A stretch of 35,664 nt of DNA from a virus, in UHGV virus genome UHGV-0379599; one strand, 5' to 3'. The notes below the pieces were generated by a model that made no database searches, was not told the origin of the DNA, and saw nothing but the letters and a program-made list of their open reading frames with translations. The translations under genes and the position numbers were made by a program. Of this stretch, positions 3,892-26,778 are shown piece by piece. Numbering within the stretch: the first letter of the stretch is position 1; every line of letters begins with the position of its first letter.

Positions 3892-4803
3892 ATGGCAACA
3901 GTGACAACGATACCAGCAGATATAACTAATCTGAAAAAAGAAATCGACTCTATTAAGAGTAATGTTGCTAAAAAACTGGAAATTTCAGGCGGCACAATAA
4001 CTGGTGATCTAACAGTTGTTGGTGGCATTTCTGGTGAGCTGTCCGGAAATGCCTCAACAGCCACAAAACTAAAAACCGCGCGAAAGATTAATTCCGTTTC
4101 GTTTGATGGTTCAAAAGACATTAACCTCACGCCTGAAAATGTTGGTGCATTGCCAATAACCGGAGGAGCTCTTACCGGCGGTTTAACGGCTGCTGGCGAG
4201 ATTGTTTCCAAATCAGGAAACGGCTTCCGCATCGTACAGGGTAACTATGGATTCTTTATCCGAAACGATGGTTCAAACACATACTTCATGTTGACCAATT
4301 CGGGCGACAGCCTAGGAACATGGAATAGTTTAAGGCCGCTTACCATTAACGATGCCAGTGGTGGAGTAACTATTGGGAACGGTTTAACGGTTAATGGTTC
4401 TCTTGGTCTGGGTACTGCAAATGCTCTTGGCGGTAACTCTATCGTTCTTGGCGATAATGATACTGGTTTTAAACAGAACGGTGACGGCCTGCTTGATGTT
4501 TATGCAAATAGCCAGCATGTATTCCGCTTTCAGAATGGTACTTTGCAGAGTAACAAGCCAGTTAATGTCGCAGGTCAGGTGACTCCATCAGATTACGGTA
4601 ATTTTGATTCCCGCTATGTGAGGGATGTCAGACTTGGCACACGTGTTGTTCAGACCATGCAAAAAGGCGTGATGTATGAAAAATCAGGTCATGTAATCAC
4701 GGGGCTTGGTATTGTCGGTGAAGTCGATGGTGATGACCCCGCAGTATTCCGACCAATACAAAAATACATCAATGGCACATGGTATAACGTTGCGCAGGTG
4801 TAA
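3892..4803 (+). CDS. Tail-fibre distal (tip) module, 303 aa, lacking an N-terminal baseplate-attachment domain
   Basis: Shares the junction motif NASTATKLKTARKINSVSFDGSKDINLT with H (NADTATKLKTARKINNVSFDGSTDITLT, about nt 2170-2260). Block GNGFRIVQGNYGFFIRNDGSNTYFMLTNSGDSLGTWNSLRPLTINDASGGVTIG resembles lambdoid Stf C-terminal regions. SD-like taaggaa upstream. Confidence 0.6.
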   Translation: MATVTTIPADITNLKKEIDSIKSNVAKKLEISGGTITGDLTVVGGISGELSGNASTATKLKTARKINSVSFDGSKDINLTPENVGALPITGGALTGGLTAAGEIVSKSGNGFRIVQGNYGFFIRNDGSNTYFMLTNSGDSLGTWNSLRPLTINDASGGVTIGNGLTVNGSLGLGTANALGGNSIVLGDNDTGFKQNGDGLLDVYANSQHVFRFQNGTLQSNKPVNVAGQVTPSDYGNFDSRYVRDVRLGTRVVQTMQKGVMYEKSGHVITGLGIVGEVDGDDPAVFRPIQKYINGTWYNVAQV

Positions 4804-4806
4804 ATT

Positions 4807-5334
4807 ATGCAGCATTTAAAAAACATTAAGTCAGGTAATCCAAAAACAAAAGAACAATATCAGCTAACAAAGAATTTTGATGTTATCTGGTTATGGTCCG
4901 AAGACGGAAAAAACTGGTATGAGGAAGTAAGTAACTTTCAGGAAGACACAATAAAAATTCTTTACGACGAGAATGATATTATTATCGCCATCACCAAAGA
5001 TGCCTCCACGCTTAACCCTGAGGGTTTTAGCGTTGTTGAGGTTCCTGATATTACCGCCAACCGACGTGCAGACGACTCAGGTAAATGGATGTTTAAGGAT
5101 GGTGCCGTGATTAAGCGGATTTATACGGCGGACGAACAGCAGCAACTGGCAGAATTACAGAAGGCAACTTTGCTTTCCGAAGCTGAATCCGTGATTTTGC
5201 CGCTGGAACGCGCTGTCAGGCTGAATATGGCAACAGATGAGGAGCACAGCCGACTGGAAGCATGGGAACGCTACAGTGTTCTGGTCAGCCGTGTGGATAC
5301 GGCAAATCCCGAATGGCCACAAAAGCCTGAATAA
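4807..5334 (+). CDS. G: Tail fibre assembly protein (Tfa / P2 G-like)
   Basis: 175 aa; N-terminus [41 protein letters not shown] is characteristic of enterobacterial phage tail-fibre assembly proteins. Confidence 0.8.
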
Positions 5335-20552: not shown

Positions 20553-23389
20553 ATGAGTTTGCATGGAGCTGGAATGAACCACGGCCAGCCATTGATCCGG
20601 CCAGATTTACGGAGCACAGGCAGGAAACTGAAACCGACCTGCAACGCGCCATCCGTTACTACCTTGAGGCAGACAAAAAGGCTCTGGAAGAACAGGAAGC
20701 GAAGGAGGAAGCCTTTTTCGCACAATCCACCGTGGGTAAAAAACTCATGGCATCCCTTGAGGAAGCCGGACAGCGTGAAAAGCTGGCACAAAGCATCATC
20801 AGCAAGCGTCAGGCAACAGAACAAGACCCGGTGGCCCGTGCTTTTGCCACACTGAAGGTGCTTCCCGTTTATCTGCGTGAACCTCTGAGCCGCCACCTCT
20901 CTTTCCTGCGCAAAAAACAGGAAGCCGATCGCCAGAAAGGCAAAAAGAGCTGGCAGGCTGAACGCTACGCGCGCGGAACCCTGCGCAAAATATTCGAACG
21001 CCTGGACCGCACCGACCACCGCTGGCTGACACCGGGTTATCGCTCCCTTGCCGGACGCGAACGCCTGGATGATTTGCTTTACCTGCCGCAGCTCAACAAG
21101 CACCAGATACAGACGCTGGCCACCATGACGGCGGCGATGTTCAGCAGCACCTTCGAAAAACTCTGCGATGGCTTTGGCGCGACCGATGGTGAGTTGACCA
21201 TGGAGGTGGCACTGAAGGCGTATCAGATGCTGGCCCGCATGGCGTTACACCTGCACGCCATGCCTCCACATTATGACGCACTGACAACAGACAAAGACCG
21301 CAAGAACGAACCGGACACGGAACTGCTGCCGGGCGCAATCCTCCGCCTGACCTGTGCAGAATGGTGGAAACGCAAACTGTGGCTGTTACGTTGCGAGTGG
21401 CGGGAAGAACAACTCCGCGCCGCCTGTCTGGTTTCCAGAAAAACATCGCCCTATCTGAGCCAGGACGCGTTAAGCGAGTTTCGCGCACAGCGCGAGAAAA
21501 CACGCGATTTCCTGAAAAGTTTCATGCTGGAAAACGAAGACGGGTTCACGATTGATCTCGAGACGGTGTATTACGCGGGAGTAAGTAACCCGGTCCACCG
21601 TAAAGCAGAAATGATGGCCACCATGAAGGGGCTGGAACTTCTGGCCGAAGCCCGTGGCGACAGAGCGGTGTTTCTGACTGTCACCTGCCCGTCAAAATAC
21701 CACGCCACAACAGAGAACGGTCATCCGAATCCCAAATGGAACGGGGCCACCATGCGCGACTCCAGCGATTACCTGGTTAACACGTTTTTTGCGGCGGTCC
21801 GCAAAAAACTGAACCGCGACGGCCTGCGCTGGTATGGCATCCGCACGGTGGAGCCTCACCATGACGGCACCGTGCACTGGCATATGATGGTCTTTGCACA
21901 TCCGGACGAGATTGAAACCATCGTGTCCCATGTCTGCGATATTGCCATTCAGGAAGACCGCCACGAGCTGGGCGATGACATAACTCCGCGTTTTAAGGCG
22001 GAGTACGTAGACGGCTCAAAAGGCACGCCAACCAGCTACATCGCCACCTACATCGGAAAGAACCTGGACAGCCGCGCCGTGGATGGCATCGACCCGAAAA
22101 CGGGCAAGCCACGCGTTGACCACGAAACCGGAAAATCAATGGCAGAGAGCGTGGAACGCGCCATCGGCTGGGCGCGCCTTCACCGGGTCCGCCAGTTCCA
22201 GTTCTTTGGCATTCCCTCTCGTCAGGTATGGCGTGAACTCCGCCGCCTTGCCAGCCAGATGGCACGCAACCCGGAAGGCCCACAACGGCTGAAGGATGAT
22301 GCAATGGATGCGGTACTCGCTGCCGCTGATGCCGGGTGTTTTGCCACCTACATTGAGAAACAGGGCGGCGTACTTGTTCCACGCAAAGACTACCTGATTC
22401 GCACCGCCTACGACCTCGCAGATGAGCTGAACGATTACGGCGAGCAGAGTGTACAGATTTACGGGATCTGGTCGCCGCTCATCGGGGAGTCTTCCCGTGT
22501 GTGCACACATCCGGATAACTGGAAGCTGGTAAGACGTAAACCTGAAGCAGAAGACAGCGCCCGCGAAAATGGTTTTGACCTTCAGGGCGGCCCTGCCGCC
22601 CCTTGGACTCGTGGCAATAACTGTCCCCGTGTACAGGAAACGGACAACAACGGGACAGAACAGCCGGAAGAACGGCCAGCACCGTGGCCGCAGCTCCCTG
22701 ACGGCGTTGAAGTGAACGAATGGATGCGCTCACTGAAACGGCACGAACGCCGGGCGCTGATGCGTTCGCTTCGTGACAAACAGGCAAAAAACAGCAGTGA
22801 TGAAATGCAGAGCTGGACACAGAGCCGCAAACAGCAGCGGCCTTTGCCTGATAACCACGAATTACTCGCTAAAGAATGGCGGGAGTCTGCCGAATCTCTC
22901 GGCCTGCATATCGGTGAACAGCAGATGCAGCACCTGTTACGGGGCGGCAGCCTGTACGTTGACGGCAGCATCATTGCACCGCAGGGATATGAAATTGTAC
23001 GCAAACCGGATACCCGCCCGGACAGCCGAATCACGCAACTCTGGCAACGCCTGAGCCGTAATCACGGCGTAAGCAGCACGGAGATCCGTCATAACCCGGT
23101 CGCCAGCTATCTGGAACAGCTGGGGGCATCAGACCCTGAAGCCGCCGCACGCCTGGCATCCACACTTCAGCAGGACCAGAACACCATGAAAACACCCGTT
23201 ACCGTGCTTTCTGACATGCTGCGCGCCATCCGCGACGCAGAGCACGCACAGAGAATCAGTGAAACCACTGAACGCGCCCGCCGCAAAGCAGACCTGCTGC
23301 GGGGTGGCCTGACCAGTGGAAACAAAAAACAGACAGAAACGGGATTCACAAATCCCGTAAATGAGCAAAAAACGCGCCGCGATATATGA
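20549..23389 (+). CDS. A: Rolling-circle replication initiator (P2 A-like endonuclease); start at 20549 or 20522
   Basis: HUH-type motif TVEPHHDGTVHWHMMVFAHPDE; following tyrosine-containing region (TSYIATYIGKN); size and position between early genes and the Q/P block. Confidence 0.8.
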   Translation: MNEFAWSWNEPRPAIDPARFTEHRQETETDLQRAIRYYLEADKKALEEQEAKEEAFFAQSTVGKKLMASLEEAGQREKLAQSIISKRQATEQDPVARAFATLKVLPVYLREPLSRHLSFLRKKQEADRQKGKKSWQAERYARGTLRKIFERLDRTDHRWLTPGYRSLAGRERLDDLLYLPQLNKHQIQTLATMTAAMFSSTFEKLCDGFGATDGELTMEVALKAYQMLARMALHLHAMPPHYDALTTDKDRKNEPDTELLPGAILRLTCAEWWKRKLWLLRCEWREEQLRAACLVSRKTSPYLSQDALSEFRAQREKTRDFLKSFMLENEDGFTIDLETVYYAGVSNPVHRKAEMMATMKGLELLAEARGDRAVFLTVTCPSKYHATTENGHPNPKWNGATMRDSSDYLVNTFFAAVRKKLNRDGLRWYGIRTVEPHHDGTVHWHMMVFAHPDEIETIVSHVCDIAIQEDRHELGDDITPRFKAEYVDGSKGTPTSYIATYIGKNLDSRAVDGIDPKTGKPRVDHETGKSMAESVERAIGWARLHRVRQFQFFGIPSRQVWRELRRLASQMARNPEGPQRLKDDAMDAVLAAADAGCFATYIEKQGGVLVPRKDYLIRTAYDLADELNDYGEQSVQIYGIWSPLIGESSRVCTHPDNWKLVRRKPEAEDSARENGFDLQGGPAAPWTRGNNCPRVQETDNNGTEQPEERPAPWPQLPDGVEVNEWMRSLKRHERRALMRSLRDKQAKNSSDEMQSWTQSRKQQRPLPDNHELLAKEWRESAESLGLHIGEQQMQHLLRGGSLYVDGSIIAPQGYEIVRKPDTRPDSRITQLWQRLSRNHGVSSTEIRHNPVASYLEQLGASDPEAAARLASTLQQDQNTMKTPVTVLSDMLRAIRDAEHAQRISETTERARRKADLLRGGLTSGNKKQTETGFTNPVNEQKTRRDI

Positions 23390-23436
23390 AGCGCGCACAA
23401 GACAGGCGAAAACGGGATTTAAAAATCCCGTAAACG
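23337..23436. repeat. Two copies of a 20-bp palindrome (ACGGGATT-n4-AATCCCGT) about 73 bp apart; candidate protein-binding sites (parC-like centromere/operator)
   Basis: Copy 1 at 23339-23358 (inside the 3' end of A); copy 2 at 23412-23431 (35 bp upstream of the parM-like start). Flanks also repeated (AAACGGGATT...ATCCCGTAAA). Confidence 0.5.
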
Positions 23437-23465
23437 ATTAATTAATCAACATAAGGAAAATCGAC

Positions 23466-24425
23466 ATGAAAATTTGTATCGACGACGGCTCCACCAACAT
23501 CAAGCTGGCATGGACTGAGAACGGCGAACGCCGCAACGCCATCAGCCCGAACAGCTTCAAGTCGGAATGGTCTGCGCCGTTCGGTGGTACACAGCCCGCG
23601 AACTACATGCTTGATGGCGTGCGCTATGGTTTTGATCCGGTCAGCGATCGCTTTGTCCAGACGACCGACACGCAATACCAGTACAGCGATGTGAATGTCA
23701 TTGCCATTCATCACGCGCTGGTCAAATCAGGCATCACGCCACAGGAGGTGGATGTGGTTGTCACCCTGCCACTGAGCGAGTATTTCGACACAAACGCACA
23801 ACCGGACATGGCCAACATCAACCGCAAAAAAGTGAACGTTATGCGCCCGGTGGAATACCAGAACGGCGAAACATTCACTATCCGCAACGTACGGGTTATG
23901 CCTGAATCCATTCCGGCTGGCTTTAAGGCACTGGCTGACATGAGTCCGTTTGAATCCCTGCTGATTGTGGATTTAGGCGGAACCACGCTGGATGTGGCAA
24001 AGGTTCAGGGACAACTGGCAGGTATCAGCCAGGTGTTTTGCGATCCACACGTAGGCGTTTCCCTGATAGCCGATGCCGTACTGTCGGTGATGGCCACTAA
24101 CGGTATGCGTACCAGTCACCATATCGCCAATACCATCATCGAACATCGCCACGATGAAGCCTGGCTGCGCCAGCACATCCACAATGACGCGCATTACGAC
24201 AGCCTGATGGCGGTTATTCGTGAAAAGGAAGAAACACTGAAACAACGCGTGATCCGCGCGCTGGCGGGTTTTTCGGGTTACGGGCGGGTGATGGTTGTCG
24301 GTGGCGGGGCGGAGATTGTGGCACCCGCTATCCGCGAAGCCTGCGGAGTTAATGCGACTTTCATCGCGGACGGGGTGCCACAGTTTGCTCTGGTTAATGG
24401 GCTGTACGCAATGGACAAGGAGTAA
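23466..24425 (+). CDS. parM: ParM/StbA-like actin-type plasmid segregation ATPase
   Basis: MKICIDDGSTNIKLAW...ISPNSFK...YSDVNVIAIHHAL...VDLGGTT closely parallels recalled plasmid R1 ParM (MLVFIDDGSTNIKLQW...ISPNSFK...YSDVNVVAVHHAL). Confidence 0.8.
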   Translation: MKICIDDGSTNIKLAWTENGERRNAISPNSFKSEWSAPFGGTQPANYMLDGVRYGFDPVSDRFVQTTDTQYQYSDVNVIAIHHALVKSGITPQEVDVVVTLPLSEYFDTNAQPDMANINRKKVNVMRPVEYQNGETFTIRNVRVMPESIPAGFKALADMSPFESLLIVDLGGTTLDVAKVQGQLAGISQVFCDPHVGVSLIADAVLSVMATNGMRTSHHIANTIIEHRHDEAWLRQHIHNDAHYDSLMAVIREKEETLKQRVIRALAGFSGYGRVMVVGGGAEIVAPAIREACGVNATFIADGVPQFALVNGLYAMDKE

Positions 24426-24429
24426 ACCA

Positions 24430-24741
24430 ATGACGACACCAACCAGACGGATAAGTTTCTATCTGAAGCCTGCGGCCGTCAAGAACGAAAGCGAAGCATG
24501 CGCCTGGCTGGACAGCCTTACACCAGAAGCCCGCAAAAGCGGCCAACGCGTGGCTTTTCTGGCCGGGCTGGCACTTCTGAAAATGAATCCAGCAGAGGCT
24601 TACCGACTGGCTGCATGGGCTGACGATGAGGCGTTATCAGTGACACAAACCAGGACAGAATGCCCCGCGTCACAGCCAGTATCAACCGCACAGATAACCA
24701 GTCAGATGGCCGGAAATATCCGGGCGTTATTTCCCGAATAA
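24430..24741 (+). CDS. parR: ParR-like centromere-binding adaptor (104 aa; start at the ATG 4 nt after the parM stop)
   Basis: RRISFYLKP...LDSL....R...AFLAGLAL parallels the recalled R1 ParR N-terminal RHH region (RRTIAFKLNP...LDSI...R...AALTAGLAL); gene order parM-parR. Confidence 0.6.
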   Translation: MTTPTRRISFYLKPAAVKNESEACAWLDSLTPEARKSGQRVAFLAGLALLKMNPAEAYRLAAWADDEALSVTQTRTECPASQPVSTAQITSQMAGNIRALFPE

Positions 24742-24746
24742 CACAA

Positions 24747-24770
24747 CATCAGGGCGCATCCGCCCTGATG
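24747..24770 (+). terminator. Hairpin (ATCAGGGCG-cat-CGCCCTGAT) after parR
   Basis: 9-bp perfect inverted repeat 5 nt after the parR stop; weak T tract. Confidence 0.35.
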
Positions 24771-24839
24771 ACTTTAATCCGGGAACATAAACAAGGGGGA
24801 CACAATGCAACACATTGACAGAGAAAAAGGAAAAAAAGC

Positions 24840-25247
24840 ATGAACAGAAAACAGAAACAAGAGTTGAAATACTTCTTACGTAAAGAAATTGCCAGGCTTG
24901 AAGATGCAGAGTCACAATCATCAGAAATTCCGTTCGGAATGGATATCAACGACGCCCGTATGCTTCAGGCATACCGTATAGCTCAGGCTGCACTACAGAC
25001 AAAACCGTTAAATAACATACATGAAAAGTATGATTATTTTACGGATACCGCTTGCTTGCTGACATCTGAAGAACAAAAGATAGCCCAACTTTTAGGCGAC
25101 GCATGGAACCTGTATTTAACATTGCCAGTTGAGCATCCAATGGGTAGAGATGAATTTTGCCGGGCAATTCATCATTGCCAAAATATGGTGTTGGCACGCC
25201 CGGCCATCAGGGCGCTGGCCAGGAAGGGGCAAGGCTATAAAAGATAA
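24840..25247 (+). CDS. AT-rich orphan gene, 135 aa, unknown function
   Basis: ORF preceded by a purine-rich SD region (GAAAAAGGAAAAAAAGC); lower GC than the backbone; located where P2 carries old/tin. Confidence 0.5.
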   Translation: MNRKQKQELKYFLRKEIARLEDAESQSSEIPFGMDINDARMLQAYRIAQAALQTKPLNNIHEKYDYFTDTACLLTSEEQKIAQLLGDAWNLYLTLPVEHPMGRDEFCRAIHHCQNMVLARPAIRALARKGQGYKR

Positions 25248-25250
25248 GTA

Positions 25251-25276
25251 AAACGCCCTCCTCCAGAGCGTTTATT
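25251..25276 (+). terminator. Weak hairpin terminator after the 135-aa gene
   Basis: AAACGC...GCGTTT stem followed by ATTTC. Confidence 0.3.
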
Positions 25277-25279
25277 TCA

Positions 25280-25731
25280 ATGCACAATAGTGCACAAATT
25301 TGCACGATTTTTTTGAACGACTTTTTGCCCTTCCGGCCCGCGTGGCGGCTGGATCCGTCAGGGATCCGTGCGTGCACAAAAAAACGCGCTTTTTCTGCGC
25401 GCAGGTGACGGGGGAACAGCCCGCGTTTCAGGGGGTAAATAGCATCCCCTGAACGATGTCGCAGCAACACAACAGAATGGCTGTATTTCTCACGCTGAGC
25501 GTGAAAAAGACGTGAGGGCTTTTGATTTGATGGGGTGAAAGGTAAGGCCGTCAAAATCGCACTGAGGCGGTGAGAACATGCAGTTAACGCGGTGGGATTG
25601 CGTAAGAGTCTGACCGTCGATGATGGCAATAAGCAGGAAAGCGTCGTGAAATTATCTGACTGATACAGGAGCTGGAGAGTCGGGGCATAAATTTTTTATG
25701 CCCCGGCGAAGCAGCAGACAAGCGAAGCGCG
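25280..25731. other. Non-coding region expected to contain cos (packaging site), by synteny
   Basis: About 450 bp without a credible ORF between the accessory genes and portal gene Q. Several dyad symmetries (GGATCC-gtca-GGGATCC, TTCAGGGGG...CCCCTGAA, GGGGCATAAA-TTTTTTATGCCCC). GC-rich stretches resembling P2/186 cohesive-end sequences (GCGTGGCGG; GACGGGGGAACAGC) but no exact match recalled. Confidence 0.35.
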
Positions 25732-26778
25732 TCAGGATGTGGGCTGGGTGTCCAGCAGTGCATAAGGGTTAAAGCGGATCACCTCTTCGCCAAGCCAGTC
25801 ATTGATGTGCTTCATGGCCTCCATGACGGGCATCAGCTCGTTAATTGCGTAAACCCGCGCGGCCTTCTCCACATCACCAAACGCACTTTTTTCACCCGGC
25901 ATCGCCCCCATCAGTTGCGGCGGGACACGGTGCGCAGCCAGCACATCATCACGGGATGCCGCCTTAACATTCATGAACTCATCCTTTGCGGTGATCTGCT
26001 GGAACGGCAAAATTTGCACCCCCTCTTTGCCCCCGTTGGGCGCATGGATGAGCACGTTTTTAAACGCACCACCACCACGCGCACCCTGTAACGTTTCTTT
26101 CAGGGAGTCCATGCTTTCGCGGTTTACCTGCGCTGCACCGATGTAGATGATGCACCCGGCGTGGGATCCATTGTCGTAATACAGTTTTCTGAACATGTCC
26201 GCCGAATGAGACAGGCTGGCCGAGAGTAATGCGCCAAGATATTCCGGCATGCCGTAAATTTCCTGGTTAATGTCCGGATTCATCAGGTGGCACACTTTGC
26301 CAGGGCGAAACTGGAACGCGTCCTTGCCATCCTGCACATACCACCATGATTCAAGATCGCTTCCGCGTCGCATGTATTTCGCCAGTGCGTGCCGTAATTT
26401 AAGCGGTTCGCCGAGCATATTGCTTCGAAGCTCAAGGAATGCGTTACCGAACACAAACCAGTCCAGCGCCAGCGCCGAGAAATCCTGCCGGGAAAGCAGC
26501 GGGTGCGGGATGTAGCAACCGAGTAATACATTGCGCTTAAAGTAAAGCGCAGACTGATGCCAGGACGTTTGCCGGGCTGCTCTTGCCAGACCGTACCAGT
26601 CCACCGGGGTTTCATACCACCGCCCGTTATCAGCACAGTACATATTGTCCAGCAGGTCATGCCCGGTCAGGCGATAAGGACCATCAAATGTGAATGCACT
26701 GAGCGATGATTCTTTCCTGAGCGCATCAGCGAGATCAATGCGTGAACTCATGCGCACTTTTTTATTTTTTCTGCTCAT
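25732..26778 (-). CDS. Q: Portal (capsid portal vertex) protein Q
   Basis: 348 aa; position upstream-adjacent and co-directional with terminase P, divergent from O, as in P2. Confidence 0.85.
   Translation of the reverse strand: MSRKNKKVRMSSRIDLADALRKESSLSAFTFDGPYRLTGHDLLDNMYCADNGRWYETPVDWYGLARAARQTSWHQSALYFKRNVLLGCYIPHPLLSRQDFSALALDWFVFGNAFLELRSNMLGEPLKLRHALAKYMRRGSDLESWWYVQDGKDAFQFRPGKVCHLMNPDINQEIYGMPEYLGALLSASLSHSADMFRKLYYDNGSHAGCIIYIGAAQVNRESMDSLKETLQGARGGGAFKNVLIHAPNGGKEGVQILPFQQITAKDEFMNVKAASRDDVLAAHRVPPQLMGAMPGEKSAFGDVEKAARVYAINELMPVMEAMKHINDWLGEEVIRFNPYALLDTQPTS

Follow-up and report, generated by a model that had tools for sequence, protein, structure and literature searches.

Background

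Actin-like segregation systems on elements that normally reside in the chromosome provide precedents for the locus considered here. The SrpMRC system of the SXT/R391 integrative and conjugative elements (ICEs) has been proposed, and in part demonstrated, to be of importance solely for the excised circle of the element, a transient form with rolling-circle-type replication (Carraro et al. 2015, PMC4489591). The AlpAC/alpS system of prophage CGP3 of Corynebacterium glutamicum comprises an actin-like protein and a co-transcribed adaptor that binds sites in the region upstream of the operon itself; it is induced early after excision and acts on circular phage DNA, and the phenotype shown for it is the efficiency of replication rather than partition (Donovan et al. 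2015, PMC4446434). The Burkholderia phage KS14 combines P2-like virion genes with a partition gene, and its lysogeny as a plasmid has been shown by plasmid preparations (Lynch et al. 2010, PMC3091744). Here we analyze the virus genome UHGV-0379599 (35,664 nucleotides; hereafter "the window" denotes this whole stretch), a P2-like phage that encodes, between its replication gene gpA and its portal gene, homologs of the plasmid partition proteins ParM and ParR preceded by two copies of a 20-bp palindrome. We propose, with about an even chance of being right, that this cassette is a functional type II (ParMRC-type) module that acts on transient extrachromosomal circles of the phage and brings a partition benefit when the cell divides.

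Both the cassette and the idea that it serves plasmid maintenance are already known from the literature and from database annotation. The GenBank and RefSeq records label the genes as ParM and as a partition protein, and PHROGs has families for both. Arrangements of the type "StbA + Plasmid_stab_B" are tabulated by Rousset et al. (2022, PMC9122126), and the paper on the Citrobacter phage phiSM places the protein among the "fitness" open reading frames (ORFs) (PMC6456863). An original prediction, made from the sequence of the window, was unaware of any P2-like phage described as a phage-plasmid; this has been overtaken by the literature, as KS14 was shown to be one in 2010 (PMC3091744), and Rousset et al. 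2022 had made the same observation, together with the same speculation. No functional study of this cassette was found in the literature. What is new here is the two-palindrome site with its phylogenetic footprint, the tripartite conservation of ParR and the estimates of selection, as well as the finding that parMR belongs to the core of the lineage, not to its cargo, and the quantitative evidence against a plasmid lifestyle.

Results and discussion

A full-length ParM under tight constraint

The window comprises the entire genome of a P88-like phage of the P2 family in circularly permuted form, and the region in question is 95-98% identical to Escherichia phage P88 and to other Xuanwuvirus (Peduoviridae) genomes. 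Its permuted and complete state follows from baseplate gene J, which wraps across the window ends: it starts at 35520 and finishes at 752, and the two parts (145 + 752 nt) add up to 897 nt and thus equal P88 gp37 in length.

The original prediction had recognized the gene downstream of gpA by its ParM-like motifs, and searches with hidden Markov models together with the alignment to ParM of plasmid R1 confirm a full-length member of that family. Its residues 1-157 match Pfam StbA_N (6.4e-82) and its residues 159-316 the ParM C-terminal domain (6.9e-69); the protein also matches PHROG 691 "partition protein" (1.4e-90), and it aligns end to end with the R1 ParM structure 1mwk (E=5.2e-93, residues 2-316). 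In NCBIfam, ParM gave only sub-threshold matches and ParR none. The pairwise alignment reveals motifs for nucleotide binding and hydrolysis identical to those of R1 ParM, namely DDGSTNIK (phosphate-1), PESIPAG (R1 E148), DLGGTTLD (R1 D170) and GGGAE (adenosine), where the R1 residue numbers are counted on the 1mwk alignment; the equivalents of E148 and D170 are presumably the catalytic residues.

The phage protein is 46.5% identical to the IncF (R1-type) StbA/ParM, and its nearest plasmid relative among the matches listed, from an IncI-gamma/K1 plasmid, is 52.6% identical; more than 5,000 plasmid records contain homologs in the range of 40-53%. On the other hand, among 50,697 phage records homologs occur only in P88-like phages, at 96-99% identity, and in the phage-plasmid D6, at 47.5%. 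The phage clade is sharply separated from every plasmid ParM, which indicates that parM was acquired by the phages long ago and has since been kept by vertical inheritance. Probably, few ParM genes are more widespread in E. coli than the one of this cassette.

Estimates of the ratio of nonsynonymous to synonymous substitutions (dN/dS, method of Nei and Gojobori) amount to 0.02-0.13 for parM, with 0.035-0.05 in the comparison with the Hafnia phage at dS of ~0.65, and to 0.11-0.31 for gpA, with 0.2-0.3 in most pairs, including all those that involve the window or the Hafnia phage. Hence, parM is under strong purifying selection and tighter constraint than the gene of the replication initiator, and therefore it is likely to have an important function for an integrated, rolling-circle element; the par cassette looks functional rather than like a decaying relic. 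A degraded P88-like prophage on a 12.3-kb contig of GCA_008711365.1 has kept an intact 319-aa parM and both palindromes; its gpA is distributed over four ORFs, an insertion sequence (IS) element lies right after parR, and parR itself is apparently frameshifted in the middle of the gene.

ParR, an adaptor conserved at its two ends

The small ParR-like protein of the original prediction is likewise borne out, including its start at 24430, four bases downstream of parM. It belongs to Pfam PF10784 (Plasmid_stab_B, "Plasmid stability protein"; 1.7e-24, 85.9 bits against a cutoff of 25) and matches PHROG 2515 "partition protein" (1.5e-57). The single sequence has no match in the PDB; a profile built from 28 homologs matches the ribbon-helix-helix domain of pB171 ParR (2JD3) with E=0.008 over residues 8-73, and from this the N-terminus of the phage ParR is predicted to form a ribbon-helix-helix-like DNA-binding domain. 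The AlphaFold2 model of the monomer is poor (predicted local distance difference test score, pLDDT, of 57) and contains helices only (20-29, 32-52, 54-61 and 86-100), which is expected because the ParR fold needs a dimer.

Conservation along the ParR chain is uneven. The strand RRISFYLKP and the rest of residues 1-63 are conserved and are followed by a hypervariable linker (~65-95), and in the tail NIRALFPE the residues N96, I97, F101 and P102 are invariant across the 28 variants. ParR of the nearest plasmid system, IncI-gamma/K1, ends with NIKNLFPDDE, and the two proteins share a tail of the form NI(K/R)xLFP. R1 ParR binds ParM through its C-terminus; a role in ParM binding would therefore suit the conserved tail of the phage protein, which by analogy may contact ParM. 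The pattern as a whole appears to mirror a three-part system, in which the DNA-binding N-terminus and the tail are fixed and the linker is free to vary, and the presumed partners of ParR, i.e. the palindromes and ParM, are nearly invariant.

With respect to the plasmid ParR/StbB proteins, the phage ParR is only ~25% identical. The dN/dS of parR is 0.13-0.37, with a fast-evolving linker, and dN of the N-terminal domain is 0.00-0.01 within the close class of E. coli/Citrobacter alleles and 0.09-0.25 towards the Hafnia and 569R5 classes. The homologs of ParR form 84 clusters, from Escherichia, Citrobacter, Cronobacter and Hafnia, and a tblastn search of PLSDB (72,556 plasmids) with the ParR of the window retrieved seven records only, all of which carry the phage itself. 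There are at least two allelic classes of ParR that are only 52% identical (the other class is exemplified by vB_EcoM-569R5 and by positions 4631-4945 of a second locus, L003), and they are joined to nearly the same parM (97% nucleotide identity) and to the same palindromes; the DNA match to the 569R5 class ends ~55 nt (18 codons) into parR. We rejected the notion that ParR has diversified in order to avoid incompatibility, as the palindromes are unchanged across the 52%-identical classes.

Two palindromes at the position of parC

The two 20-bp palindromes, suggested in the original prediction to be a parC-like centromere or operator, are indeed present, conserved, and located at the canonical position of parC, 35-130 bp upstream of parM. 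Palindrome 1, ACGGGATTCACAAATCCCGT, lies within the coding sequence of gpA, and palindrome 2, ACGGGATTTAAAAATCCCGT, is located between the two genes, with its end 35 nt before the ATG codon of parM. Two matches to the motif in the 35.6-kb window compare with 0.08 expected, and in 100 shuffles the motif never occurred twice or more. According to a repeat search, each palindrome is embedded in a 42-nt direct repeat (Table 1), and the starts of these repeats are 73 bp apart.

Both palindromes keep their position in eight relatives, including the Hafnia phages, which are separated from the window by a parM dS of ~0.65. The core GGGATT...AATCC is invariant, except for the last C, which is a T in the degraded prophage mentioned above, and the four bases at the centre are variable. 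In the comparison of the window with the Hafnia phage, repeat 1 is 81% identical, repeat 2 83% and palindrome 2 90%, against 45-49% in the flanks (48% in the adjoining coding sequence of gpA and 45% in the spacer between the repeats). In the Hafnia phage the stop codon of gpA falls at the centre of palindrome 1, which is read through by gpA of the window; thus, palindrome 1 must be conserved at the level of DNA and not by coding. The substitutions in the arms are uncompensated (in palindrome 1, GGGATT is replaced by GGGACT, and in palindrome 2 the outer pairs are affected), and therefore an inverted repeat that binds a protein fits better than an RNA hairpin under selection. We regard the two palindromes as a putative parC, to which ParR would bind. 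A small GC-rich repeat between them (ACGCGC...GCGCGC) was considered as a covarying hairpin and dropped, as its changes are inconsistent between the relatives.

The cassette was originally predicted to end at 24770, which coincides with the end of the hairpin that closes it. This hairpin resembles a terminator, and of the two strands only the minus one has a T-rich tail; its folding energy is -18.4 kcal/mol for the plus and -22.5 kcal/mol for the minus strand (z of ~-4.2 to -4.5), and it is found also in P88. On the plus strand, the terminator scan predicted none between gpA and parM, and a scan for sigma-70 consensus promoters upstream of parM found none in the window, in P88 or in the Hafnia relative; candidates picked by eye (matches of the 7-of-12 type) were not counted as evidence. 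In sum, parM has no consensus promoter and is separated from gpA by no predicted terminator, which suggests, if only weakly, that parM and parR are co-transcribed with gpA, by read-through of the early operon.

A core module of the lineage

The cassette (23466-24741) occupies the place between gpA and the portal gene that holds old and tin in P2 and many defence systems in P2-like phages (Rousset et al. 2022, PMC9122126). The original prediction placed it at this hotspot, and as regards the gpA-portal locus of a P2-like phage this is correct; however, parMR does not behave as variable cargo. It is retained in 14 of 14 records of P88-like phages, with ParM 96-99% identical, and in syntenic relatives from Hafnia and from metagenomes, and the order gpA-parM-parR-cargo-portal-terminase recurs in every context of a ParR homolog that was read (Escherichia, Citrobacter, Hafnia). 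On the other hand, the segment from parR to the portal gene differs between P88, 569R5, 520873, phiSM, the window and the Hafnia and Logan relatives. Thus, parMR is a conserved, lineage-wide core module beside gpA, and the variable hotspot proper begins after parR. The segment in question (24772-25731 in the window) varies in gene content as well as in length, contains terminator-like hairpins on the minus strand (25402-25384 and 25273-25251), and probably holds cos. In PADLOC no family matches ParM, ParR or the 135-aa ORF downstream of them at E <=0.01.

The phage is normally integrated

The original prediction combined the cassette with the hok-like locus and suggested that the element can be maintained outside the chromosome. 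The hok-like locus itself is real, with a Pfam HOK_GEF match above the cutoff; the conclusion drawn from it is not supported by where the phage is found, by the state of its attachment site (attP) and by its replication genes. The cassette is present in 1,308 of 5,426 complete E. coli genomes (~24%), at 1,454 chromosomal places as compared to 2 on plasmids. When the same genomes were searched with a 1-kb probe that spans attP (window 14150-15150), 1,545 of them matched, none with any place at >=80% coverage, and the match was never contiguous; the best ones start at query position 465, i.e. at about 14614 of the window. The attP region extends over ~14556-14747, with the break near 14614. An unbroken attP in the window, never seen in the complete genomes, implies that the window represents an excised, virion or circular form and that the complete genomes contain the integrated one. 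Identical ParM proteins occur in 151 blocks of the collection, and in 83 of these the longest contig exceeds 50 kb; in one instance the phage is integrated beside a host FecCD gene on a 206-kb contig, where FecCD adjoins the coiled-coil gene. The normal resting state of the P88-like phages is, on overwhelming evidence, the integrated one.

Among plasmid records, PLSDB contains one phage-sized circle, NZ_CP148288.1 (34,461 bp), which comprises a P88-like phage in its entirety, including an identical ParR; over a stretch of 9.6 kb this record agrees at 100% identity with an integrated copy in another (sister) strain. Phage-sized P2-like "plasmid" records without any par genes exist as well, e.g. 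pENTAS02, and records of this kind are probably excised or induced DNA. The Shigella boydii "plasmid" NZ_CP049283.1 was rejected as an episome, as it is a linear assembly fragment riddled with IS1, and the remaining PLSDB matches are large records (228 kb to 1.4 Mb) that contain phage genes. The sole replication initiator found is gpA (Phage_GPA, of the HUH rolling-circle type). No plasmid Rep was found among ten ORFs of the early region, which gave matches to helix-turn-helix (HTH), DUF4761, DUF4754, MarR-like and Derepression families.

What the cassette might do, and for which form of the phage

As the phage normally rests in the chromosome, the machine is most likely at work only while the genome is an extrachromosomal circle. 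By homology with the plasmid systems, ParR dimers, or dimers of dimers, would assemble on both palindromes, whose separation of 73 bp corresponds to about seven helical turns, and the C-terminal tail of ParR would capture the ends of filaments of ATP-bound ParM. Growth of a ParM filament between two such ParR-parC complexes would then push two circular phage genomes apart. The windows of action would be the time between infection and integration and the time after excision, with the early operon (cox...gpA-parM-parR) transcribed. The few replicated circles might in this way be distributed to both halves of the cell and to its daughters, so that each descendant would be likelier to keep, integrate or propagate a copy; no long-term plasmid prophage would be sustained by the cassette. 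Among the points in favor of this proposal are two experimental precedents, SrpMRC and AlpAC, of par-like actin systems that work for an integrated element only in its excised state.

Several points weigh against the proposal. A single circle that does not replicate would gain nothing from partition, the lytic cycle of P2 is short, and cells may divide too seldom during the extrachromosomal phase for partition to be of consequence. The lack of a consensus promoter is weak evidence, and the genes could be expressed in the lysogen as well. There are only two sites, whereas the R1-type parC (locus L011) is a dense array of iterons; with so few, a full segrosome may not form and the palindromes could be an operator only. 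Moreover, the minus strand of each palindrome is flagged as a weak intrinsic terminator in the window, in P88 and in the Hafnia relative, with an 8-bp hairpin followed by a T-rich tail and a folding energy of -10.2 kcal/mol (z of ~-2.1 to -2.6). One may thus ask if the palindromes are leftward (antisense) terminators or merely an operator, with the centromere elsewhere or absent. We hold this to be rather unlikely, as stronger terminators on the minus strand are already available between the portal gene and parR (25402-25384, 25273-25251 and 24770-24747), the essentially invariant inner half-sites, variable centre and uncompensated arms are typical of an inverted repeat bound by a protein, and the motif, placed as a parC should be, has no other copy in the genome. 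Alternatively, ParM filaments linked to phage DNA by ParR could serve the lytic cycle rather than inheritance at cell division, in the manner of AlpAC; they would position or transport the replicating circles, e.g. to a site of replication or packaging, and make these processes efficient. Replication of the P2 type yields monomeric circles as the substrate of packaging, i.e. plasmid-like objects to be moved; parM follows gpA immediately and is read in the same direction, the gap between the two genes contains no predicted terminator, and the constraint on parM, which exceeds that on gpA, is what one would expect from a function used in every infection. However, about three quarters of the P2-like phages, including P2, are devoid of the cassette (Rousset et al. 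2022, PMC9122126), which must therefore be dispensable for replication or packaging of the P2 type, and the ParM described here is an orthodox R1-class protein, as opposed to the distant actin-like AlpC. Such a lytic organizer is an unlikely, albeit serious, alternative.

The P88-like phages might also be elements with a dual lifestyle, normally integrated but otherwise, e.g. when attB is missing or occupied, living for many generations as low-copy circles that are partitioned by ParMRC, stabilized by hok-like killing and replicated by gpA at a low level. If this were true, about a quarter of the P2-like prophages of E. coli would be facultative phage-plasmids with a rolling-circle replicon of ~35 kb. 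The complete cassette and the hok/gef-family gene would be in place, the window is in the attP configuration, NZ_CP148288.1 was deposited as a plasmid, a plasmid prophage of the P2-like type is known in Burkholderia (KS14, PMC3091744), and Rousset et al. 2022 (PMC9122126) raised the same possibility. Nonetheless, we find a true or facultative phage-plasmid improbable and give the dual lifestyle little credence. The chromosomal places outnumber the plasmid ones by far, an intact attP occurs in none of the 1,545 matching genomes, identical ParMs reside in more than half of the blocks on contigs longer than 50 kb and, in the place that was read, next to host genes, and gpA is the only initiator in a phage that retains its integrase and C-type HTH repressor. 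The attP form is given also by virion DNA, and the plasmid record in question shares its 9.6-kb stretch with an integrated copy; par-less records of the same kind exist, and such deposits probably represent excised or induced DNA. A function expressed in the lysogen, such as the incompatibility or exclusion of related elements or the segregation of the chromosome region that bears parC, would agree with the many defence systems of the gpA-gpQ locus (PMC9122126), with the listing of the protein as a "fitness" factor in phiSM (PMC6456863), and with the intact parM retained by some degraded prophages. We regard it as very improbable: neither ParM nor ParR matches PADLOC, the pair is conserved in the lineage and the variable cargo follows downstream of it, and no consensus promoter of its own precedes parM. 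In addition, this type of ParR and the palindromes occur in no bona fide plasmid (the tblastn search found only records that carry the phage), and consequently there is no obvious target of incompatibility but the sibling phages.

Returning to partition of transient circles as the preferred explanation, we note that understanding the cassette would extend the idea, now emerging from SrpMRC and AlpAC, that cytoskeletal motors of the plasmid type are employed by integrated elements while they are briefly extrachromosomal. A minimal centromere of just two palindromes would thereby be defined for a ParM of the R1 class.

Other features of the window

The features on which the analysis is based are collected in Table 1. 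Downstream of gpA the order is parM, parR and the 135-aa ORF, followed by the portal and terminase genes on the minus strand; the portal gene shows 99-100% identity in tblastn to features annotated as "phage portal protein", and the 135-aa ORF has no match in Pfam, NCBIfam or PADLOC. The Phage_GPA domain covers only residues 194-518 of gpA, whose long C-terminal region is without a domain match, diverges fast, and ends inside or past palindrome 1, depending on the lineage.

Table 1. Position of the par cassette and of other features in the window
Feature	Coordinates	Strand	Evidence or remark
gpA, replication gene A, HUH rolling-circle initiator, 955 aa	20522-23389	+	Pfam Phage_GPA 1.2e-129; "replication endonuclease" in P88 and relatives
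parC-like repeat unit 1, 42 nt	23323-23364		holds palindrome 1 (23339-23358); inside the gpA coding sequence
parC-like repeat unit 2, 42 nt	23396-23437		holds palindrome 2 (23412-23431); intergenic
parM, actin-fold segregation ATPase, 319 aa	23466-24425	+	Pfam StbA_N and ParM C-terminal domain
parR, putative centromere-binding adaptor, 103 aa	24430-24741	+	Pfam PF10784
GC-rich hairpin, 10-bp stem, closes the cassette	24747-24770		repeat search, terminator scan, RNA folding
135-aa ORF, first gene of the variable cargo, outside the par cassette	24840-25247	+	PHROG 13916 and 660 only
gpQ, portal gene, right boundary of the gpA-gpQ locus	25732-26778	-	"portal protein" annotation in relatives
Integrase ORF	15664-16806	-	same gene has Pfam Phage_integrase in the integrated copy
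Hok/Gef-family toxin ORF, 46 aa	14210-14350	+	Pfam HOK_GEF 4.1e-07, 29.9 bits against a cutoff of 22

The hok-like ORF lies between ogr (13759-14019) and attP, that is at the right end of the integrated prophage; Rfam has no match anywhere in the window, and hence none to a hok/sok RNA. Directly upstream of ogr, a 356-aa protein with a PIN_12 domain (12604-13674, plus strand; 2.9e-20) has no counterpart at that place in P88 and no match in PADLOC, and it may be accessory or defence cargo. Two further cargo ORFs on the minus strand separate attP from the integrase gene. One (14748-15278) encodes a 176-aa coiled-coil protein, labeled in RefSeq as CCDC90/DUF1640-like, whose PADLOC matches we disregarded as low-score coiled-coil noise; the other (15279-15692; 137 aa) has no family match.

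Comparison with known partition systems

The phage cassette resembles ParMRC of R1 (StbA/StbB of IncF plasmids) in the order centromere-parM-parR, in a ParM that is collinear from end to end and possesses the ATPase motifs, and in a ParR that belongs to the same family, PF10784. The two systems differ in sequence, the phage ParM and ParR being 46.5% and ~25% identical, respectively, to the IncF (R1-type) proteins, and in the site, as the R1-type parC (L011) consists of dense direct repeats of the AAACCC type that flank a TTGACA promoter, and the phage has two isolated palindromes. They differ also in the replicon, which in the case of R1 is a low-copy theta plasmid and here an integrating element of the rolling-circle type. 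With ParR of pB171 the phage protein shares the N-terminal ribbon-helix-helix domain, as judged from the profile match to 2JD3, and with ParMR of IncI-gamma/K1 it shares the tail, the ParM of that plasmid being the nearest among the matches listed; nevertheless, the sequence similarity is low (~25%), and the region upstream of the IncI-gamma/K1 genes contains T-rich short direct repeats and no GGGATT/AATCCC palindromes. Apart from the P88-like phages, the only phage with a ParM homolog among the records searched is D6, a P1-like phage-plasmid of 91 kb, in which the protein is annotated as StbA.

KS14, though a plasmid prophage with P2-like virion genes, relies on a type I ParA and a RepB initiator and has no protein matched to gpA, whereas the phage of the window possesses gpA, an integrase and a C-type repressor. 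AlpAC resembles the phage cassette as an actin-like system encoded by an integrated prophage; it differs in that its host is Gram-positive, AlpC is a distant actin-like protein and the adaptor has no relation to ParR, whereas the phage ParM and ParR belong to the orthodox R1/pB171 class. SrpM and SrpR are likewise distant from R1 ParM and ParR, SrpR is without a recognizable ParR domain, and the element that encodes them is conjugative; the function of SrpMRC has been tested experimentally. Nonetheless, as a ParMRC-like system carried by an element that is normally integrated, SrpMRC provides the best functional analogy to the cassette of the P88-like phages.

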